Source of the DNA: a virus
Lineage: Duplodnaviria; Caudoviricetes
DNA: 64,000 nucleotides
IMG/VR virus record: IMGVR_UViG_3300047160_003205
Location: 14,845 to 78,844 of that record
Reading direction: 5' to 3' (one strand)
Under the pieces are notes generated by a model. It was not told the origin of the DNA. It saw nothing but the letters and a program-made list of their open reading frames with translations, and searched no databases. Positions 10,466 to 40,615 of the stretch are shown in pieces (position 1 is the first letter of the stretch; each line of letters opens with the position of its first letter). The position numbers and the translations under genes were made by a program.

Positions 10466-11269
10466 TCACATAGGCGCGCTGTCTGGATCCACTTCTTCGA
10501 ATTGGACGGGGGTCTCTACCATCTTCTCACCCGCCTCGAATGAGTTGTTTAGTTCTTCGCCCCGGTTGTATTCATCCTGCTCCTGGACCCAACCGGCATC
10601 CGAGATGTCCCAGGTCATCCAGGTTCCAGCCGCATTGGTGCGCGGCTTCGTCCGCAGCCGGTAGAGGCAAGCCCATGACGGCGGCTTCACCCCAAACGCC
10701 TTCTTCCGGTTCATCATAAACATCCAGTTCCGAGACACCGTATGTCCCGAGGATGTCATGGGAATGACGTAGGGGATCGCCATGTCTTCAAAGATGACAT
10801 AGCCCGTATGATAGCGCGTCTGTACCACCTCATTCCCATTGGGACGAACCCATCGGAACTTGTTGGGGTTCTGAGGGTCTTGCTTTTGCTCAGCGTCAGC
10901 CGGGCGCTCTAGGTGACGGCCTACAAAGCCGCCGCCTTTTGACCTGGGTATCCATTCAACCCAATCAACATGGAAGTAGCAAGGCTGGAACAATATCCCG
11001 TCATCCCCATTGATAGCGGGGACACCACTGTTCCGAAGCCATATTGCCCCCGCCTCTCCCCCTTCAACATAATTTGGGTCTTTCCTCTGAGCCTGTGGGC
11101 TTTGGGCTTGAAGGATATAAATGAGAGGGACGAGGTTGTCCTCCGCCCGGGTACTGACCCCCTTCCCGGCATCCTTAACGACTGACTCCTTGAGGAAGGC
11201 CGGAACAGTTCCGGGTTCGGGAACGGATGGAAGGTTGGTTTCTTCTGAGGCTGCTGCTTTCGCCATCAT
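10466..11269 (-). CDS. Putative ssDNA-binding/annealing protein
   Basis: Replication-module context, aromatic beta-rich core (YVEWIPR.KGGGFVGRH) and an acidic C-terminal tail. Confidence 0.5.
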   Translation of the reverse strand: MMAKAAASEETNLPSVPEPGTVPAFLKESVVKDAGKGVSTRAEDNLVPLIYILQAQSPQAQRKDPNYVEGGEAGAIWLRNSGVPAINGDDGILFQPCYFHVDWVEWIPRSKGGGFVGRHLERPADAEQKQDPQNPNKFRWVRPNGNEVVQTRYHTGYVIFEDMAIPYVIPMTSSGHTVSRNWMFMMNRKKAFGVKPPSWACLYRLRTKPRTNAAGTWMTWDISDAGWVQEQDEYNRGEELNNSFEAGEKMVETPVQFEEVDPDSAPM

Positions 11270-11895
11270 TTCTGGTCCTTGAGCTTGACGATACGGCCCA
11301 CTGTGCCGCCGATCTTGTCGAGGTCCGGTAGCTTGTGTTTCACTTCCACCTGTTCTTTTAGCCAGGCGGTAAGGGTCATGTTATGAACTGACTCGGCCAC
11401 AATGGGAAGATAACCCATTGCTTGGAGCTTCATGACTAGCTCCTGAGCCCGGGCGCGGTCCTCGCGGTTGAAAGGGACGGTGACGATAGTCTTGATAAGG
11501 TCTTTCGCATCCATCCCTTCCAGGTACGCGAAGCCCTCGGTGCGCTTCGTGTGGTCCCATTCCGCGCTAATGTTAGCGCGGTAGTAGGGGGAGGCCGTCG
11601 CGATCACCCCTGGATAGTTGCCCTCTGGGGGAAGGCTAATGCTATCGACCCCGACCTCATCAAACAGATCAGGCAAGTCTTTCATGTAGAGATTGTAGAG
11701 TGCGATGTTCGTCTCTTTAAGGCGGGCCTCTAGGTCCGCCTTCTCGCTTTCCATCGCTCTCGCGCCCGATACGGCGTCGCGGAGCCGCTGTAAGCGGTCG
11801 GCGCTAGGGGTAGATCGGTCCTCGGTGAGAAGCCGCCGTAGAGCCTCGGGCGGGCCGGAATTGGTGTCCGGGCTTTTTCTGGGCAATTTGGCCAT
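11266..11895 (-). CDS. Phage replication-module hypothetical protein
   Basis: Coiled-coil N-terminus, LPDLFDEVG and VHNMTLTAWLKEQ motifs; coupled to 10466-11269. Confidence 0.55.
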   Translation of the reverse strand: MAKLPRKSPDTNSGPPEALRRLLTEDRSTPSADRLQRLRDAVSGARAMESEKADLEARLKETNIALYNLYMKDLPDLFDEVGVDSISLPPEGNYPGVIATASPYYRANISAEWDHTKRTEGFAYLEGMDAKDLIKTIVTVPFNREDRARAQELVMKLQAMGYLPIVAESVHNMTLTAWLKEQVEVKHKLPDLDKIGGTVGRIVKLKDQK

Positions 11896-11990: not shown

Positions 11991-12038
11991 AAAAAAGATG
12001 CGTCCCAGGCTTCCGGGGCTGTGGAAACCTGGGACGCC
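11991..12038 (-). terminator. Intrinsic terminator
   Basis: GCGTCCCAGG/CCTGGGACGC 10-bp inverted repeat followed by a T-run on the minus strand. A second hairpin lies at about 12039-12079. Confidence 0.6.
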
Positions 12039-12086
12039 GCTAAACCGCCAGTGGGTGGGGCTGGGGGCGGTTCAGCGAACTGATGC

Positions 12087-12485
12087 TTACTTGGGCTCCT
12101 TGATCAGGACCTCAGTCCAGAAGAAGCCCTTTCCAGGAACATAGGCCAGAACCCAAACGCTGGGCTCATCCTTCATTTCCGGAATCACAGGAAGCTGGGT
12201 CGGGAACAACGGGTGAGAGGGCGTGCCCGGGGGTAGCTCCGGAAGCTGATCCGGATAGATTGGCGCTGGAAGATGGGCCGGGAAGGATGGTTCGCCCGGC
12301 GCTGGAAGGTGCGACGGGTGGCCTGGGCCAGGGCCAGCGATGGGATGCTCCGGCGTGCCCGGGGGTGGCGCCACTGGCGGGGTAGGTGTAGGACGAGGCT
12401 CACCAGGCGGTTCGGCGATAGGGTGAACCGGGTGAGCGCCTGGATCTAGCTCAACCCAGGTAATCAGTGCGAGGTGCGAAGACAT
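12087..12485 (-). CDS. Pro/His-rich repeat protein
   Basis: HPI/HLP-P repeats, ending in WVLAYVPGKGFFW. Confidence 0.6.
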   Translation of the reverse strand: MSSHLALITWVELDPGAHPVHPIAEPPGEPRPTPTPPVAPPPGTPEHPIAGPGPGHPSHLPAPGEPSFPAHLPAPIYPDQLPELPPGTPSHPLFPTQLPVIPEMKDEPSVWVLAYVPGKGFFWTEVLIKEPK

Positions 12486-14658: not shown

Positions 14659-15894
14659 CTAAAACCAGGTGCGATAGTTGAAGTGTGACTCGCGGATTTT
14701 GACGAGGACGATGCGATAGCCCTTGTCGTGGACGACGACCTCGGTCATATCGTTGTTCATCTCCACGCCCTCTTTCTGGGTCAGGTCAATGGTAAGAACC
14801 GTCCGGACCCGCGTGCGTCGCCCGTTCTTATCACGGGCATAGACGGTGATCGGCCACTTCCCGTCGCCCTTCCCGCTGAAGGGGCTCGCGATTTCCGAAG
14901 GGAAGTAGTCGTCGCTCATCTTTCTTGACTTGGGAGCCCCCTCTTCATCCTCCTGTTCGTACATTTCCATTACTCCATGGGGGTCTTCCCTAAACCCATG
15001 TTCACCCAGCAGCATCCCCTTGGGATCGTACACTTCCACCCGGTACTTCGCATTCGTGGAGACGTAGGTGATATTGAGGATGTCGAGGACATCCTTCACA
15101 TCCTCGCCGTAGCGGTTGAGTTCCTCGGTGATGGCCTGGAGCATGTCGAAGCTGAAGTTGAAGATCATGGCGCCGAGGCGGACGACCGCTTCCAGCTTGG
15201 ACTTGTCTTCTAGGTTGACCCCGAGGTACTCGCGCACGAACGCCTCGTCCAACCCGCCGAACTCTAGGGCGTAGAAGATGCGGCCGGGGCGGTTGAGGAA
15301 GTTCTTGTCGATCTTGTACTTGTCGTTGCTCGTGATCACCATCAGCTTCTTGCTACTGAACGCGCCGTCGAACAACGTGAGGAGGGCTTCCTGCTTATCC
15401 TCCTCATGGTACACCTTCTCGAACTCATCGAACAGGACGAGGGCCGGTTGCTCGAACTTCCTGATGAACTCGTTGAAGTCTGAGCCCGCATAGGGCTCGT
15501 CCACCAGGAAGATCGGGTATCCCGCGTCCACTGCGAGATTGGCGAGGAGCTTCAGGAGGAGGGACTTGCCCGCCCCCTTGTTTCCGAACAGGAGCACGCC
15601 CGTCGTGGACGGGCGATCCGCGAAGGTGTTAAGAAACCGGGTAGCCATCTTCGGGCAAGAGCCATAGATGCGCTCCGGCAGTTCGAAGGGGAAGGTGCGA
15701 GTGAGGTGATACCCCACCAACTGATTGAAGTTGACGAGGTAGAACCCTGGCGGCACCCGGTCCAGGATGTCGCCGTCCAGTCGGGACGACACGAAGATGC
15801 GGGACCCGGTGGATCGGAAGACGGTGGGCTCTGCCGTTCCCTTCACCTTCCGCCTAACTTCGTGGATATCTGCTTTTTCCAACATTTTGTTCAT
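14659..15894 (-). CDS. AAA+ ATPase
   Basis: Walker A GNKGAGKS, Walker B LFDEFEK, sensor TSN, NRPGRI. Confidence 0.9.
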   Translation of the reverse strand: MNKMLEKADIHEVRRKVKGTAEPTVFRSTGSRIFVSSRLDGDILDRVPPGFYLVNFNQLVGYHLTRTFPFELPERIYGSCPKMATRFLNTFADRPSTTGVLLFGNKGAGKSLLLKLLANLAVDAGYPIFLVDEPYAGSDFNEFIRKFEQPALVLFDEFEKVYHEEDKQEALLTLFDGAFSSKKLMVITSNDKYKIDKNFLNRPGRIFYALEFGGLDEAFVREYLGVNLEDKSKLEAVVRLGAMIFNFSFDMLQAITEELNRYGEDVKDVLDILNITYVSTNAKYRVEVYDPKGMLLGEHGFREDPHGVMEMYEQEDEEGAPKSRKMSDDYFPSEIASPFSGKGDGKWPITVYARDKNGRRTRVRTVLTIDLTQKEGVEMNNDMTEVVVHDKGYRIVLVKIRESHFNYRTWF

Positions 15895-15920
15895 GCTTTA
15901 GTCTCCGCTGATGGGGTACG

Positions 15921-22057: not shown

Positions 22058-22299
22058 AGGCGCTTCCAGTCGGCGTCGTCTAGGCCGCTCATCAGGAACT
22101 CCCGCTCCTCATCCGTCAGGTACGGGAAGGCATTTTGGATAGACATGCCGTCCTGCCACGCCTGATAGTCAGCGTAGTTCATCTTGAGGTGTCGCGTCTT
22201 AGTAGCAAATCCCGGCATGATCGGATAGACAGTGACGTCGGCTCCGAGCATATCCTGGTCCCACATGATCTCGCGGACAGGTTGATGCATTCCCGGCAT
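22039..22299 (-). CDS. Hypothetical early protein
   Basis: RBS AGCGGAGAACAC and TATACT element at 22344-22349. Confidence 0.6.
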   Translation of the reverse strand: MPGMHQPVREIMWDQDMLGADVTVYPIMPGFATKTRHLKMNYADYQAWQDGMSIQNAFPYLTDEEREFLMSGLDDADWKRLWGKDQ

Positions 22300-22479
22300 T
22301 ATCGTGTTCTCCGCTTTTTGTCGGCCTTTTCCGGCCTAACTTAAGTATAGACCGGAGACAGCGGGGACAGGAAGAAGAAAGAAAGGCGGACAACGGGGGC
22401 AGAACCAGCTGGGAGGCCCGTAAGCAGTTTTCTTTCTCCATGAACGGCGCGAGGGTCCTGGGTCGGTAGGGAGGACCAA

Positions 22480-26384: not shown

Positions 26385-26563
26385 AAGCCGTCGTAGTCGC
26401 AGACGCAGAACTGCTTCCCTTCAGGGCCACAAATTCTAACGTCACCGTGGATTGCCTCGATATGGATCCACCAGTTGTAGTAGGGTCCATCCTTGTTAGT
26501 AACCAGCTTGATCGCCTCTGTTACGGCCGCGTTCGTAAACTCCAAATTCTCCGCTATCGACAT
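26354..26563 (-). CDS. Hypothetical early protein
   Basis: RBS GGAGAACAC and TATACT at 26587-26592. Confidence 0.55.
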   Translation of the reverse strand: MSIAENLEFTNAAVTEAIKLVTNKDGPYYNWWIHIEAIHGDVRICGPEGKQFCVCDYDGFWTLVRPDMV

Positions 26564-26609
26564 TGTGTTCTCCCCGACGACGCTCTAGTATAGCTTAAAG
26601 GCAGCTGAA

Positions 26610-26825
26610 TTAGCTATGCCTTTTATTAGCCCAAATTTGGCGAGCCTCTGCCGTCCAGCCCGAAGCCCATGCCGAGTGGGAAAGTGTGCCGGCTGTATAC
26701 GGGTTCAGATTCAATCCGAAATCATGCCGACGGGCATCTCTCCCAGCTTCTCGCGCCAATCTAATGTGTTCCGGCTCCCAACCCACGGGCCAGGAGGACG
26801 GATCGCCAAGATCGATCACGGGCAT
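26610..26825 (-). CDS. Small protein with ribosome-modulation-factor-like motif
   Basis: AGRDA...NPY...SAWASGW resembles the RMF G..A..G...CPY...W..GW pattern. Confidence 0.45.
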   Translation of the reverse strand: MPVIDLGDPSSWPVGWEPEHIRLAREAGRDARRHDFGLNLNPYTAGTLSHSAWASGWTAEARQIWANKRHS

Positions 26826-27036: not shown

Positions 27037-27432
27037 TTATTTGCGACGAACGCCGAGGCCCGGAGGCACGCGGCAGTCGGCGTCGAGAATGTTCCCGAAG
27101 AGGCGAGCAAAGCGAACAATAATCTCCGCTTTGACGTCCTCGGAGTAGTTTGCGGCGTCGAGGATAATGTTCTGTAGAAGATCGAGTCCACAGGTGCCAT
27201 TGTCGTCGCGGTCGCGCGGGAGGGCATTAAGCGAGAGTCCTGCCTCGAAAGCTCTGATAAGCTCGCGCCCGTCTGTATCGGCGGGCGGGTCCGCTGCGAA
27301 AGCGATGTTGTCTACGGGCAGGGCTAGGGTCGCGAGGGTAGCGGTGTCTATCTCGTCGCCGTAGACAGAACCTAGCCTCTGGCGAAGCTCGGGGCTGAGA
27401 CGTACTTTTTTGTAAGGGTCGAAAGGCTTCAT
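27037..27432 (-). CDS. Hypothetical early protein
   Basis: RBS AGCGGAGAACA. Confidence 0.6.
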   Translation of the reverse strand: MKPFDPYKKVRLSPELRQRLGSVYGDEIDTATLATLALPVDNIAFAADPPADTDGRELIRAFEAGLSLNALPRDRDDNGTCGLDLLQNIILDAANYSEDVKAEIIVRFARLFGNILDADCRVPPGLGVRRK

Positions 27433-27486
27433 TCTGTTCTCCGCTAGGGAAAAGGAAAGGCAGCCGAAGCTGCCCTAGTTGTTTGA

Positions 27487-27771
27487 TTAGAGCCCCTCGA
27501 ACTCAGCGAGAAGCTCTCTGTCAGCTTTGCTTAGAGATAGGCCGCATTCGCGGCGGTCGTAGGCATTACCGAGGCGGCGCTCTTTGCTCGCCGTCCAGCC
27601 TGCTGGGCGCTCTTCGATTGTAAGGCGACGGCCCCAGTTGTCTACGTAGGTCCGGTCCCCGTTTACAGGGGGACGCCCTAGCTGTTTTTCTAGGCCCTTA
27701 AGGGCAGAAGCCTCGTCCGGGTACACATGGGAATGAACCCCGTCTTCGGCCGATATAAGCAGTACCCACAT
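27487..27771 (-). CDS. Hypothetical early protein
   Basis: RBS AGCGGAGAA. Confidence 0.6.
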   Translation of the reverse strand: MWVLLISAEDGVHSHVYPDEASALKGLEKQLGRPPVNGDRTYVDNWGRRLTIEERPAGWTASKERRLGNAYDRRECGLSLSKADRELLAEFEGL

Positions 27772-27799
27772 TTGTTTTCTCCGCTTTGTTATGTTCGGT

Positions 27800-28111
27800 T
27801 TACTCGGAAATAACGCGCCAGCGCCGCCGCCGCTCTTCAGGGGTTAGGACTGGGCGGTCGTTCGCTTTGAACTCGTCCGCGATCCCGAGCTTCGCAGTAA
27901 TGTCCGCGAAGCGAGCGAGCGCATCCTGGTGTTCGGGCGAAGCCTTAGCTCGCATTTGGTCGATAACATCCTCGTCCTCGTCTGGGTCGAGCCCCTCGAT
28001 TCTGTCGAAGAAGTCTTCGAAGTTCTCGGCAGTCCAGCCTTCGAACCGACTGTCTGCCTCGTAGGCGTCGAGCAGATCGGCTAGTTCGGGAAGCATTTGT
28101 TCGGGTCGCAT
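27800..28111 (-). CDS. Acidic hypothetical early protein
   Basis: RBS AGCGGAGAA; first gene after the TATACT promoter at 28139-28144. Confidence 0.65.
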   Translation of the reverse strand: MRPEQMLPELADLLDAYEADSRFEGWTAENFEDFFDRIEGLDPDEDEDVIDQMRAKASPEHQDALARFADITAKLGIADEFKANDRPVLTPEERRRRWRVISE

Positions 28112-28138
28112 TCTGTTTTCTCCGCTAGAGACGCCCCT

Positions 28139-28180
28139 AGTATAGCTTCGAGACAGCTGTAGCGTCTATGTCTTTCTTTA
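28139..28180 (-). promoter_or_regulatory. Leftward early promoter
   Basis: Minus strand AAAGAAAG-aca-TAGACG-N18-TATACT; same architecture as the plus-strand promoter at 39618-39657. Confidence 0.6.
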
Positions 28181-28193
28181 TCCCAGATACATA

Positions 28194-28449
28194 CACAAAT
28201 TTGGGCGCTTATACAGATACCCATCCAAATTTGGGGCCTGATACAAACACAAATTCTCGTATGTATACGGATGGTATAGTACACACAAATTTGGGCTGTG
28301 TACGGATTACCACACAAATTTGGATTAATGTAAAGCTTTATTAGATGTTAGCTTTATTCATATACGTCCACAAATTTGGTGAGCTAACGTTGTCTATGCC
28401 GGAATTCAGGCACAATGGTGACGCTTAGGCCACAAATTCCACACAAATT
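28194..28449 (+). repeat. CACAAATT(TGG) repeats (8 copies) in an AT-rich non-coding region
   Basis: Copies at 28194, 28226 (CAAATTTGG only), 28248, 28284, 28313, 28369, 28431, 28442. Core CAAATTTG is palindromic. Confidence 0.85.
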
Positions 28450-28561
28450 ACAACAACTTAGCTGACCTGGCTAGGCAATAGTGTCCCGTGGCTAGGTTTG
28501 TTCTTTCGTCCGTATAAGGACTACGGCTCAGCTGTCCCTGGACACTCGCAGATGGGCCCAG

Positions 28562-28611
28562 ACAATCCATCTGCTGACATACAATCCATCTGTTAAAGGA
28601 CAATCCATCTG
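28562..28611 (+). repeat. ACAATCCATCTG x3, 19-bp period
   Basis: Exact copies at 28562, 28581, 28600. Confidence 0.9.
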
Positions 28612-29072
28612 TGTGCCCCGCAGAGCCAGAGGACAGCGGCAGAGGACAGCGAACAGCTGTCTCTGAGCTCTGTCCGCCCCACCAGCGCCCACCAGGCAGG
28701 GCACAGCCGACAGCGCCCATCGGACATGCAGGCAGAGGCCATGCAGACACTAGTACAGTGCAATGCAAGATACCCAGACCCGATCCAGCGCTCAGCCGCG
28801 ACGATCGGTCGCGGTTCACAGGGGCGCGGCGGATCGTCGCGGAACGAAAGGGGAACGAGTATAGACGCCGAGTATTCGTCGCGAATACTTAGGCGAATAC
28901 TTCGAAGGGGGGCGCGGCGAAACGTCGCGGGCCTAGCTCCGCTATAGGGCTTCTCCCCTTCGCCTAGCTCGGCTATATCGGGGGTCCGGTCCGGTCGGAT
29001 CGGGGCTCGGGCCGCTCGGCCCGGGCGGAACGGCTCCCGAAGGGGAGCCCTAGCTAGGTAGGAGAGACCCCT

Positions 29073-35901: not shown

Positions 35902-36936
35902 TTAGTCGTCATAAGCCCTCTCCTCCCGCGCTTTTGCCCGCTCACGCGCAGCTTTCTGCTTAAGGGCCACGGACTTCATATGCTGCCGCCGCCGCTCGCG
36001 CTCCTCATCAGTGATCTTCATCCTCCAACCAATGGGGTGTAAGCGGCCCACCCTGTGTGTGGATTGAATATCGGGGAGCGGCCCGAGGTCGGTGGGAATG
36101 TCGGGCGTCGTCCCCAGAGGGATGGGTAGCCCCTTCCCCCGCGCGTATTCATACCGCCCTCTATTCTGCGCCTTTAGCATTTCCTCATTTGTCAGTGCCC
36201 GGGGCTTCCGTCCCCGTTTCGCTGGATTGTTCACTCGTTGATACCCCCGGTAGTTCAGTGACAGGTTCTTCGGCAACATTATCCTGTAGCGACGCACGCA
36301 CAACACCAGGACCTGGCGGATGCGCTCACGCGACACGCCGTGAACCTCCCCGGTCGCTTTCAGCGTCTCCAGCCGGATGTAGTCCCGCACGATATTCGCC
36401 CAGTACTCGGGCATGGACGGATAGATCGCGGCATTGTGCTCCTCGATCTCACGCGCCCGCGCCTTCTCCGCGTCATGCGCGAACCACACCTTCGCTTCCT
36501 CTTCCAACCGCGCTTCCTCCGCTTCCCTTTTATCCAGTGCCCTGATGTCGTCCGCCTTCAGTGTCGCCTCCGCCATCACTTCCGGGTCCGTCAACCAGAA
36601 CTTACTGACCGTGATCGGGTTCACGCCGCCGTACTTGTCGTACACATGGGATGCGACCCGGCCCGCGAGGATTTCGCTCACCACTGCGACCTTAAAGGCG
36701 TGTGGATACCTGGAGGGATACTTTGGCGCGCCCCATGCCGCCGCCCGCTCGCGGCGGCGCGCGTGCCCCAGCTTGCGGTCCTCGCGGGTGAAGCGGACCC
36801 TGTAGATTTTGGCGGCGGACTCCAGCTGTTTCACCCGGAAGCCCAGGGCTTTCGCGATGTCGATGCGGCTCACCCCTTCGGCGGCCAGCTTCCTGAGAAG
36901 CTTCTGCTTCTCGTCCGTCCAAATCCGCCTGCCCAT
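35902..36936 (-). CDS. Regulator with GcrA-like N-terminal HTH and sigma70 region-4-like HTH
   Basis: WTDEKQKLLRKLAAEGVSRIDIAKALG; TLKATGEVHGVSRERIRQVL. Confidence 0.65.
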   Translation of the reverse strand: MGRRIWTDEKQKLLRKLAAEGVSRIDIAKALGFRVKQLESAAKIYRVRFTREDRKLGHARRRERAAAWGAPKYPSRYPHAFKVAVVSEILAGRVASHVYDKYGGVNPITVSKFWLTDPEVMAEATLKADDIRALDKREAEEARLEEEAKVWFAHDAEKARAREIEEHNAAIYPSMPEYWANIVRDYIRLETLKATGEVHGVSRERIRQVLVLCVRRYRIMLPKNLSLNYRGYQRVNNPAKRGRKPRALTNEEMLKAQNRGRYEYARGKGLPIPLGTTPDIPTDLGPLPDIQSTHRVGRLHPIGWRMKITDEERERRRQHMKSVALKQKAARERAKAREERAYDD

Positions 36937-38928: not shown

Positions 38929-39276
38929 CTAGTTGGTGATCTTCTTCATGTCGGTCCGCAGCTCCTCGTCGGAGAGCTGGCGCGACTTGGCCGGGTCGCC
39001 CTCCTTCATGGAGATACCGGCGAGCTTTCCGATATGCGGGTCGTTGCCGACGAGCTTGTTGCCTTCAAGCTTGAGGACGCCCGACTGTAGCAGGCCATCG
39101 ATGAGGGTCAGGATGGTCGTGCCGGGCGGTAGGTTGTTGACGATCTCAGGGGGAAGCACGAACTTCATCCCCATGACCTCGTAGGTCGTCCAATCCTCGG
39201 GTGGCGTCTTCTCACCGGCCTTCTCATAGGCTCCGACGAGCTTTTGGACGACGAGCTTTTGTTTCTTGGTCGCCAT
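38929..39276 (-). CDS. Hypothetical protein
   Basis: 115 aa with RBS AAGGAAGG. Confidence 0.55.
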   Translation of the reverse strand: MATKKQKLVVQKLVGAYEKAGEKTPPEDWTTYEVMGMKFVLPPEIVNNLPPGTTILTLIDGLLQSGVLKLEGNKLVGNDPHIGKLAGISMKEGDPAKSRQLSDEELRTDMKKITN

Positions 39277-39575
39277 CAGTTCACCTTCCTTCGGGCTTGT
39301 TCGTATTCATACATTCGCTTCATCCCATCCTCGGTTACGAGGAAGGTGATCTTGAATTTGCGTTCCCCCAACACGAGGGCGGACGCGACAGCGTCCACGA
39401 AGAACTGGTTCTCGCCTGCTGCCGCCGCGAGCGCCTGAATCCGTTCAGGCTTCACCCACTCGGAGGTCCCGCCTGATTGCCACCCCATGAGTAGCATGAG
39501 GGCACGAGACATGGAGCGTCCTTCCGTCACACTCGACAACATTGGGACCGACGCCGTGAATTCTTCTAGGGTCAT
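39276..39575 (-). CDS. Hypothetical protein
   Basis: 99 aa with RBS AGCGGAGA. Confidence 0.55.
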   Translation of the reverse strand: MTLEEFTASVPMLSSVTEGRSMSRALMLLMGWQSGGTSEWVKPERIQALAAAAGENQFFVDAVASALVLGERKFKITFLVTEDGMKRMYEYEQARRKVN

Positions 39576-39617
39576 CGCAATCTCCGCTCGATCTTCTCCT
39601 TATTTTACCTCGAAAGG

Positions 39618-39657
39618 AAAAGAAAGTATAGACTTACAGCGGCGCTTCCCCTATACT
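39618..39657 (+). promoter_or_regulatory. Sigma70-like promoter
   Basis: AAAAGAAAG-ta-TAGACT(39629-34)-N17-TATACT(39652-57). Confidence 0.65.
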
Positions 39658-39663
39658 CGGAAA

Positions 39664-39809
39664 GCTAGGGGCCTCGCCCCGACAAAGCAGAGGAGGTTGG
39701 TGTTCTCCGCTCCAACTGGATGCGACCCTCCCGCCCCCCAGCGGTAACGCATCCCCCTAGTGGACCCCCGACGTAGAGCCCCCCAGCCCGAGCGTCGGGG
39801 GTCCTTTTT
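39664..39809 (+). ncRNA. Candidate small RNA (about 145 nt, four hairpins)
   Basis: Own promoter; stems 39696-700/39712-16, 39718-24/39748-54, 39762-73/39793-804, then TTTTT. No ORF. Confidence 0.6.
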
Positions 39810-39811
39810 CA

Positions 39812-40405
39812 TTAGATACCGAACACGTCGCGGACTTTGTCAATGATCCCGCGCTTCTCAGGATCAGGCGCGGGTTCAGTCACCTTCGGCACTGGATCGG
39901 GGATGCGTTCCACCTCAGGCTCCTCAATCCCACACCATTTTTTGACCCCATCATCATTGACCTTCACCGGCCCGTACTTGTTGATGAGCCGCCGAATCTC
40001 ACCAACATTGGGGGCTTTACTCCCTTCCTTCTCCATCCGCCGGTACTCCATGTCACGGATGAACCCGTAGGCCAGGTGCGCCGCCCTCGCCTCGGGCCGG
40101 ATTTCACGGGTTCGGTGCTTCCGGAGGCTCATGTATTCCTCCATGAGGTCGTCGGCTAGGGCTTGGTTCTGGTTCCGAACGGCCCAGGGGATACGACCAC
40201 CGACCCGCTTCTTGGGACCGATGACGGGAACGCCAAAGTGTTCTTCTTTTGAAGTGAAAGCTGCGATTGTAGCCTTCACCTTTTCCGGCGTGTCCTCGGG
40301 ACTACGCCGCTTCTTGCCGAGAAGTTTTTGTTCTTCGATGCGGATGCGCTTGGCTTCAGCCGTGAGGCCCGCAATCTTGACTCTGAGATAGCTCAACATT
40401 TCCAT
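39812..40405 (-). CDS. Phage hypothetical protein
   Basis: LRVKIAGLTAEAKRIRIEE...EARAAHLAYGFIR. Confidence 0.65.
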   Translation of the reverse strand: MEMLSYLRVKIAGLTAEAKRIRIEEQKLLGKKRRSPEDTPEKVKATIAAFTSKEEHFGVPVIGPKKRVGGRIPWAVRNQNQALADDLMEEYMSLRKHRTREIRPEARAAHLAYGFIRDMEYRRMEKEGSKAPNVGEIRRLINKYGPVKVNDDGVKKWCGIEEPEVERIPDPVPKVTEPAPDPEKRGIIDKVRDVFGI

Positions 40406-40500: not shown

Positions 40501-40573
40501 TGGCGGCCTCGCCTGAGAGTCGAACTCAGCGGTATCCAGGATTGAAAGCCCAGCCGGTCCCACGACGCGAGCC
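40501..40573 (-). tRNA. tRNA-like element, anticodon TTC (Glu), shortened D-arm
   Basis: T-arm CTGAG-TTCGACT-CTCAG, anticodon loop CTTTCAA, acceptor GGCTCGC/GCGAG(G)CC and encoded G-CCA. Confidence 0.5.
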
Positions 40574-40615
40574 TCCGGGGAAAAAGAAAGCTTACCCCGG
40601 AGGCCGTTGCGGCGT

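Follow-up and report, generated by a model that had tools for sequence, protein, structure and literature searches.

A candidate plus-strand phage RNA with a hairpin loop complementary to a tag at the ribosome-binding sites of early genes

Antisense RNAs with a single target, such as c4, sar and OOP, are known from phages, and two of these, P22 sar and lambda OOP, have their own promoter and are cis-antisense to one gene. In phage T4 the proteins RegA and RegB shut off early genes post-transcriptionally through a shared Shine-Dalgarno (SD)/start-region element. To our knowledge, there is no published trans-acting phage small RNA (sRNA) whose loop reads a tag common to many of the phage's own ribosome-binding sites (RBSs). 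Here we describe a candidate of this kind, a putative RNA gene at 39661-39809 on the plus strand of a 64,000-nt window, which comprises bases 14845-78844 of an IMG/VR virus record of 78,844 bp with terminal repeats of 97 bp; all positions below are those of the window. We tentatively propose that this plus-strand phage sRNA would pair, through the loop of its hairpin 2, with the start regions of early genes that carry a common tag and would thereby lower their translation, a reading that we hold to be possible rather than probable.

Several described systems come close to this locus. The start-associated sequence (SAS) of Cluster K mycobacteriophages is a conserved asymmetric motif with an SD core, which certain non-structural genes carry 3-9 nt ahead of their ATG (PMC3203893; PMC12699233). 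It extends beyond the part that pairs with 16S rRNA, and its reader, proposed to be 'either RNA or protein' (PMC3203893), was still undefined in 2025 (PMC12699233). Among bacterial sRNAs, 6C, F6 and Scr3202 are actinobacterial sRNAs with C-rich hairpin loops, and those of 6C pair with G-rich RBSs of several mRNAs without a chaperone (PMC6486639). The cuckoo or CcsR (RSs0680, alpha-r14) sRNAs of Alphaproteobacteria carry anti-SD-like C-rich loops on adjacent hairpins, whose pairing with SD regions has been proposed (PMC4615179).

The locus studied here is a 236-bp gap flanked by two minus-strand genes, 39812-40405 (197 aa) and 39276-39575 (99 aa). Minus-strand genes run from about 42,070 downwards, and plus-strand genes from 42,216 upwards, the portal gene being the first. 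An earlier note on this DNA had claimed a plus-strand unit in the gap with a TAGACT-N17-TATACT promoter and a 12-bp terminal stem followed by a T-run. Our analysis showed that both signals are present: the promoter boxes lie at 39629-39657 (+), with 9/12 matches and a 17-nt spacer, and the stem has 12-13 bp and is followed by T5. The features of the candidate gene are the following.

39612..39657, plus strand: RNA-gene promoter, with an A-rich upstream stretch (AAAGGAAAAGAAAG), a -35-like ATAGAC/TAGACT (39628-39634), TACAGC in the spacer, and the -10 box TATACT (39652-39657)
39661..39809, plus strand: predicted primary transcript of about 145-149 nt, its start placed from the -10 box and its end at the T5 run
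39664..39761, plus strand: predicted four-way junction, for which the minimum-energy structure and the centroid structure are the same
39701..39711, plus strand: hairpin 2 loop, the putative anti-tag, 11 nt, UGUUCUCCGCU, complement of AGCGGAGAACA
39724..39742, plus strand: C-rich interior of hairpin 3, ACCCUCCC and then the first GCCCCCCAGC (39733-42)
39762..39809, plus strand: intrinsic terminator, with a 12-13-bp G+C stem GGACCCCCGACG/CGUCGGGGGUCC (39762-39804) and T5 (39805-39809)

The terminator hairpin, at -29.8 kcal/mol (z = -6.3), is the most stable terminator-like hairpin beside a T-run in the whole 78.8-kb genome, and its loop contains the second GCCCCCCAGC (39778-39787). It is a plus-strand terminator within about 15 kb of minus-strand genes. 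The minus strand has no U-run after the hairpin, so that it works in the plus direction only and a bidirectional terminator was ruled out. A riboswitch or leader of a plus-strand gene was also rejected, because there is no plus-strand gene downstream. Three general marks of an sRNA gene are found here, namely its own promoter (as a sequence-level signal), an intrinsic terminator on the same strand, and no coding capacity.

The predicted transcript folds at -70.7 kcal/mol (z = -4.6), mostly due to the terminator hairpin, while the body alone has z = -2.06 on the plus strand versus -0.18 on the minus strand. The junction is closed by the stem GCUAGGG (39664-70)/CCCUAGU (39755-61) and encloses hairpin 1 (39672-39693), hairpin 2 (39695-39717) and hairpin 3 (39718-39754). 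Hairpin 2, which had been described as GTTGG/CCAAC, is formed by the pairing of GUUGG (39696-39700) with CCAAC (39712-39716), and its loop is accessible, with an ensemble opening cost of 2.06 kcal/mol. Two later loops had been said to repeat one motif; this is GCCCCCCAGC, which starts at 39733 and 39778, lies within a hairpin in both cases, and has exactly these two copies in the whole window. Target prediction gave no convincing target for the GCCCCCCAGC loops among the phage start regions. Besides UGUUCUCCGCU and GCCCCCCAGC, the loops of the candidate RNA include CCCUCCC. A tRNA or tmRNA was tried and rejected: ARAGORN found none even with relaxed settings, Rfam gave no RF00005 match, and the arm sizes are wrong for a tRNA-like molecule (one loop has 11 nt, and one arm of 7 bp has an interior of 23 nt).

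The loop of hairpin 2 is complementary to AGCGGAGAA, which precedes six to seven minus-strand genes. The complementary sites reported earlier for the phage genes are present and lie 5-9 nt upstream of an ATG, with the coordinate of one site corrected. The remaining sites are as follows.

22304..22315, minus strand: tag AGCGGAGAACAC, 12-nt complementarity, before the ATG at 22298, with TATACT 27 nt upstream
27435..27445, minus strand: tag AGCGGAGAACA, 11-nt complementarity, before gene 27037-27432
27777..27785, minus strand: tag AGCGGAGAA, 9 nt, 7 nt before the ATG of gene 27487-27771
28118..28126, minus strand: tag AGCGGAGAA, 9 nt, before gene 27800-28111
15902..15909, minus strand: tag AGCGGAGA, 8 nt, before the AAA ATPase gene 14659-15894
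39581..39588, minus strand: tag AGCGGAGA, 8 nt, before the ATG of gene 39276-39575

The corrected site is the 9-nt one placed before at 26565-26573, where the text GGGGAGAAC has one mismatch; a perfect 9-mer, GGAGAACAC, is found at 26563-26571. This match also uses G39700, the last base of the hairpin 2 stem, as does the 12-nt match at 22304-22315, which belongs to the best predicted target (the start at 22298, -10.8 kcal/mol). The tag AGCGGAGA(A)(CA) overlies the SD core of six to eight early/middle genes, the tagged starts being 28111, 27771, 27432, 26561, 22298 and 39575, and perhaps 15894 and 32737. The motif occurs on the minus strand of the locus itself, as AGCGGAGAA at 39703-11. That it is not followed there by a start codon, as claimed earlier, holds for any workable distance, the nearest start being a TTG about 20 nt on that opens six codons only.

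The match between loop and tag is statistically real, beyond what chance would give. AGCGGAGAA has 7 copies in the window versus 0.59 expected; it is the commonest NNNGGAGNN 9-mer of the genome (8 copies versus 5 for the runner-up) and the top extended SD 9-mer in SD-plus-start contexts. Within the candidate RNA, a single 13-nt stretch matches six start regions with a complementarity of 9 nt or more. Among 20,000 dinucleotide shuffles of the RNA, 0.015% gave at least five matches of this kind (P 1.5e-4), and a count of six is seen in no other 149-nt genomic window, the maximum being given by two windows that cover the candidate RNA. When pairing was restricted to the loop and opening energies were included, tagged genes made up six of the nine best among 139 start regions, a ranking that is partly a consequence of how this set, taken from a crude gene list and used purely as a set of start regions, was defined.

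All genomic TATACT sites were then listed and aligned, and this revealed a family of promoter-leader cassettes.

28118..28178, minus strand: cassette promoter (AAGAAAG..ATAGAC..TACAGCTG..TATACT) and leader, found by whole-genome motif search (cassette 28144)
26563..26617, minus strand: third cassette promoter (ATAGCT-N19-TATACT, span 26617-26587) and leader, which has the variant tag GGGGAGAACAC upstream of the ATG at 26561 (cassette 26592)
39602..39631, minus strand: divergent promoter-like cassette of gene 39276-39575 (CTATAC-N18-TAAAAT, 14 nt, AGCGGAGA, ATG), aligned with cassettes 28144 and 26592

The extended motif AAGAAAG-N1-2-ATAGAC-N1-2-TACAGC...TATACT was found only in the RNA promoter and at 28178-28139 (minus) in the 78.8 kb. 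The latter promoter precedes the operon from 28111 to 27037, all three genes of which carry AGCGGAGAA, and upstream of it is a non-coding stretch of about 480 bp rich in iteron-like repeats. The cassette at 39602..39631 is presumably the promoter of gene 39276-39575, and its -35 overlaps that of the RNA promoter, so that the two would be back-to-back divergent promoters. The predicted RNA promoter thus shares its private class with three mRNA promoters of the phage. Since members of the cassette family precede tagged genes, the RNA gene would use the promoter type of the tagged genes; the RNA and its proposed targets would therefore be co-expressed, a timing that fits a delayed brake better than a late switch. 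CCAAATTTGG sites are found upstream of cassettes 28144 and 26592 and not at the RNA promoter, which may escape a control that acts on these two cassettes.

The iteron-like repeats near these cassettes lie at 28183-28381, 28559-28615 and 26630-26640. Upstream of cassette promoter 28144, CACAAATTTGG recurs about every 30 bp in 5-7 copies, and ACAATCCATCTG is contained in three tandem 19-nt units of this repeat region; one copy of CCAAATTTGG is directly upstream of cassette promoter 26592. The repeat motif has 6 matches versus 0.75 expected. This array may represent an origin or bind a regulator.

A separate plus-strand RNA gene at 39661-39809 is well supported as a prediction by its private promoter class, the strongest terminator of the genome, a strand-biased fold, a non-coding open reading frame (ORF) and the complementarity of loop and RBS. 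In the proposed mechanism, a sigma-70-like phage promoter of the private cassette class would transcribe the plus-strand RNA of about 145 nt. The intrinsic terminator would end this RNA, and the four-way junction and terminator hairpin would leave its C-rich loops exposed. The hairpin 2 loop would then pair with the start-associated tag AGCGGAGA(A)(CA) over the SD core and exclude the 30S subunit from the tagged start sites, and translation of the tagged genes would drop as the stable, strongly terminated RNA accumulates. The earlier note had put forward an sRNA that shuts off early translation. The RNA gene and the loop-RBS match in that proposal are supported by the sequence signals, whereas the shut-off itself, together with the production of the candidate RNA, its pairing in trans and its repressive effect, is what we infer.

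A wider reading, which we offer with somewhat more hesitation, is that of a self-contained post-transcriptional regulon, in which the cassette would tag early genes with AGCGGAGA(A), and the loop of an opposite-strand sRNA made from the same promoter type would read the tag and set the duration of translation. If true, this regulon would provide the first RNA reader for a SAS-like motif, a question open for the Cluster K mycobacteriophages since 2011. The pair found at the locus, a 190-bp RNA gene and tags of 9-12 nt, is compact and amenable to reporters in a surrogate host. Loop-tag pairs of this kind, if real, could predict early regulons in metagenomic phages and could act as orthogonal translational switches.

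Compared with SAS, the tag is similarly placed before the ATG. SAS is a 13-bp GGGATAGGAGCCC located 3-8 bp before starts, whereas the tag is AGCGGAGA(A)/AGCGGAGAA and has fewer copies here, so by its sequence the tag would be a SAS analogue and not a member. The two also differ in that a candidate RNA reader is encoded in the same genome here; we know of no small RNA described as complementary to SAS. As for T4 RegA and RegB, the likeness lies in a phage factor that acts on a shared start element of many early mRNAs; the factors are proteins there, and an RNA is proposed here.

The candidate RNA resembles the P1/P7 c4 RNA (PMC8198154) as a small phage RNA with exposed loops directed against the translation start region of a phage gene. 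However, c4 is excised from the operon under its control and has one downstream site (PMC8198154), whereas the candidate RNA is a separate divergent gene. It differs from c4, sar and OOP alike in that its complementary tag recurs at six to eight start regions that are unlinked, and the C4 family gave no Rfam match at E <= 10.

The Rfam check suggested earlier came out negative, as no family reaches its gathering score in the window. A narrow search of the plus strand gave sub-threshold resemblances to 6C, F6 and Scr3202. The 6C model (RF01066) scored 19.1 bits versus a gathering score of 47 (E = 1.5 in the 191-nt search), and the terminator hairpin alone aligns. Like 6C, the candidate RNA has two adjacent hairpins with runs of six C in their loops and U residues after the second. 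In contrast to 6C, it has extra 5' hairpins and a four-way junction and is phage-encoded, and its tag-matching loop is not among its C6 loops; 6C is chromosomal in high-G+C Gram-positives, while the candidate RNA is on a 78.8-kb virus contig with terminal repeats. With the cuckoo RNAs it shares C-rich, anti-SD-like hairpin loops, and in both the specificity would reside in the loops, leaving the stems free to vary. But all cuckoo loops carry CCUCCUCCC, which is absent from 39661-39809, and the cuckoo RNAs are chromosomal, whereas the candidate RNA is phage-borne and has no Rfam match. One of its loops, moreover, is complementary to a tag private to genes of this phage and not to a generic SD. 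The candidate RNA does not have the complete set of defining features of either 6C or cuckoo.

Several points weigh against the proposed repression of tagged genes. A promoter common to the RNA and its targets gives no temporal switch by itself. Pairing of a hairpin loop over all of its 11 nt meets steric constraints, and the net hybrid energies are modest, from -5 to -11 kcal/mol after opening costs. Hybrid energy alone (loop plus two stem bases per side) does not separate the tagged starts from many G+C-rich sites. The tags of 28111 and 26561 are in homologous promoter-leader cassettes, so their similarity is partly due to duplication and not to independent selection. The same motif is in a hairpin loop of the minus-strand RNA, where it would fit a protein operator equally well. 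Finally, all this is seen in one genome, and no related copy of the candidate RNA was found in any search.

It is also conceivable, although we consider it unlikely, that the locus encodes a real plus-strand sRNA with another job, as a cis-antisense RNA on a read-through mRNA or as a regulator of host mRNAs via its C6 loops, with the match to the phage tag being secondary. The promoter, terminator and fold would serve such an RNA just as well. In the cis-antisense variant, read-through from 39812-40405 into 39276-39575 would be met by transcriptional interference or RNase III, as with lambda OOP/P22 sar. The candidate RNA is indeed perfectly antisense to the intercistronic part of such a read-through mRNA, but it leaves the start region of the downstream gene (39576-39595) uncovered. 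A host-directed role would give a use to the two GCCCCCCAGC hairpins, for which there is no convincing phage target, and it agrees with the sub-threshold plus-strand likeness to 6C, F6 and Scr3202, since 6C uses its C-rich loops to bind the G-rich SD regions of host mRNAs (PMC6486639); the Rfam scores, however, are far under the gathering scores. Both variants leave the far-beyond-chance match between loop and tag unexplained.

Less probable still is that the minus-strand mRNA is the functional molecule. The structured gap would then show AGCGGAGAACA in a loop, as a decoy or operator for a RegA-like protein that recognises the tag, or would be a processing or stability element, and the plus-strand promoter and terminator would be incidental. 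On this strand the motif is in the same orientation as at all tagged starts, and it is in a hairpin loop there too. The SAS of Cluster K is likewise without a known reader, protein or RNA (PMC3203893), and the minus strand has a weak resemblance to the flg-Rhizobiales RNA in the narrow Rfam search (17.4 bits versus a gathering score of 55). A distant relative whose 197-aa homologue is 45% identical has an 8-bp G+C hairpin directly after the gene stop (L047:4474-4508), with a sense-strand loop, GGGGAGAUCACAAC, that recalls the minus-strand loop AGCGGAGAACA, a lone case that chance could account for. However, the minus-strand fold of the body does not surpass that of shuffled sequence (z = -0.18), the hairpin with T5, the strongest of the genome, is a terminator for the plus strand only, and the plus-strand promoter is in the phage's own promoter family. 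A functional minus strand would leave the fold, the terminator and the promoter as coincidences.

That the locus has no dedicated function seems improbable. The terminator would be a leftover or insulating one, the promoter match would be a side effect of the neighbouring divergent promoter, and the loop match would be what remains of a cassette leader that has decayed. The -35 box of the RNA promoter does overlap the promoter-like cassette of the next gene, and the motif may partly serve that promoter; the nearest detectable relatives of the flanking gene, too, do not conserve the candidate RNA. But a full promoter, a fold of about 145 nt, the strongest terminator and the best anti-tag match, all within 190 bp, would be hard to obtain by accident.

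Two open frames overlap the candidate RNA, the longer of which is the following.

39651..39812, minus strand: 53-codon open frame, judged non-coding

This frame opens exactly at the stop codon of the upstream gene, to which it would be coupled by a TAATG overlap, and it is wholly overlapped by the candidate antisense RNA. Its codon score is -0.02, versus 0.18-0.53 for the neighbouring genes and an average of -0.13 for spurious frames. Its GC1/2/3 of 0.63/0.63/0.67, versus a genome mean of 0.59/0.45/0.63, shows no codon periodicity, and in this G+C-rich gap each of the six frames is largely open. Homologue and PHROG searches with the frame gave no match, and it was not called by the gene caller on an ENA contig with the same phage. 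The frame looks non-coding, and a 53-aa basic protein, maybe the toxin of a type I toxin-antitoxin pair with the plus-strand RNA, is very improbable as the product of this locus, as the frame has no SD and encodes an Arg/Gly-rich rather than a hydrophobic sequence without a coding signal. The other frame, a 15-codon plus-strand ORF (GTG 39700), was rejected for its codon score of -0.17 and an SD-to-start gap of 3 nt only.

Relatives of the candidate RNA were searched for at several levels. A blastn search with 1.5 kb against 50,697 phage records gave no match, nor did an IMG/VR locus search with both flanking proteins and a 247-aa neighbour, or exact and gapped patterns of the loop DNA in IMG/VR. 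The promoter motif gave 3 chance matches in A+T-rich coding DNA, and a three-anchor loop pattern gave 39 matches among 241 million metagenome records, all of them unrelated. Among 5.8 billion proteins, the 99-aa neighbour found its own near-identical cluster only. The 197-aa neighbour found its own cluster and one 37% match on a 966-nt contig in a word-index search; a full HMMER search placed it in a large family with 994 matches at E < 0.001. The candidate RNA is absent from the contigs of the nearest members of this family and from 58 IMG/VR loci, as judged by nhmmer and blastn, and a covariance model built from its sequence gave a best foreign match of 16 bits in those relatives. At the DNA level, the phage thus appears to be an orphan.

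Within the phage itself, the best non-self match of the covariance model (17.8 bits, E about 0.05) was to 11995-12132 (minus), a C-rich structured stretch with a terminator-like hairpin in the gap between 12087-12485 and 11266-11895. This hairpin is probably an ordinary terminator.

The phage, which is uncultured, is present in 24 soil DNA runs from 2018-2019 with 23 study codes, with 100% identity where covered, and these runs may come from one sampling campaign; no RNA run was listed among them. The contigs obtained from 4 of the runs agree fully with the window wherever they overlap it and so show no variation, but they are fragmentary, none of them spanning 39656-40033. A 10-kb ENA contig also carries the locus.

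The proteins of the window resemble phages of Proteobacteria and of Actinobacteria alike, so that they do not point to one host group. The alphaproteobacterial framing that the earlier note had given to the candidate sRNA is unproven for this reason, and the weak Rfam resemblances point to actinobacterial sRNAs with C-rich loops instead. A 344-aa protein encoded at 35902-36936 (minus) has a sub-threshold match to GcrA (22.4 bits versus a cut-off of 26.9), which would be the sole hint of an alphaproteobacterial host. This protein also has weak sub-threshold matches to HTH_28 and sigma-70 region 4, and it could be a phage transcription factor.

The family of the 197-aa protein encoded next to the locus (39812-40405) has no Pfam or PHROG name. 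It is tightly linked to tRNA genes, with tRNAs within 2.5 kb in 36 of the 58 IMG/VR loci. About 22 loci of the family have a suppressor-type tRNA (anticodon CTA, TCA or an 8-nt loop), which starts 97-274 nt before the start of the family gene or 8-10 nt after its stop and is on the strand of the gene in all loci except one. Other loci have a tRNA-Glu(TTC) at the same place. In the phage described here, the 210-bp gap upstream of the 197-aa gene contains a sub-threshold tRNA-Glu(UUC)-like cloverleaf at 40505-40583 (minus), with a good T arm (CUGAG-UUCGACU-CUCAG), the anticodon loop CUUUCAA, a 3' CCA and a weak acceptor stem. It was detected by ARAGORN with relaxed settings only and gave no Rfam match. 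It may be a decayed copy of the tRNA carried there by relatives.

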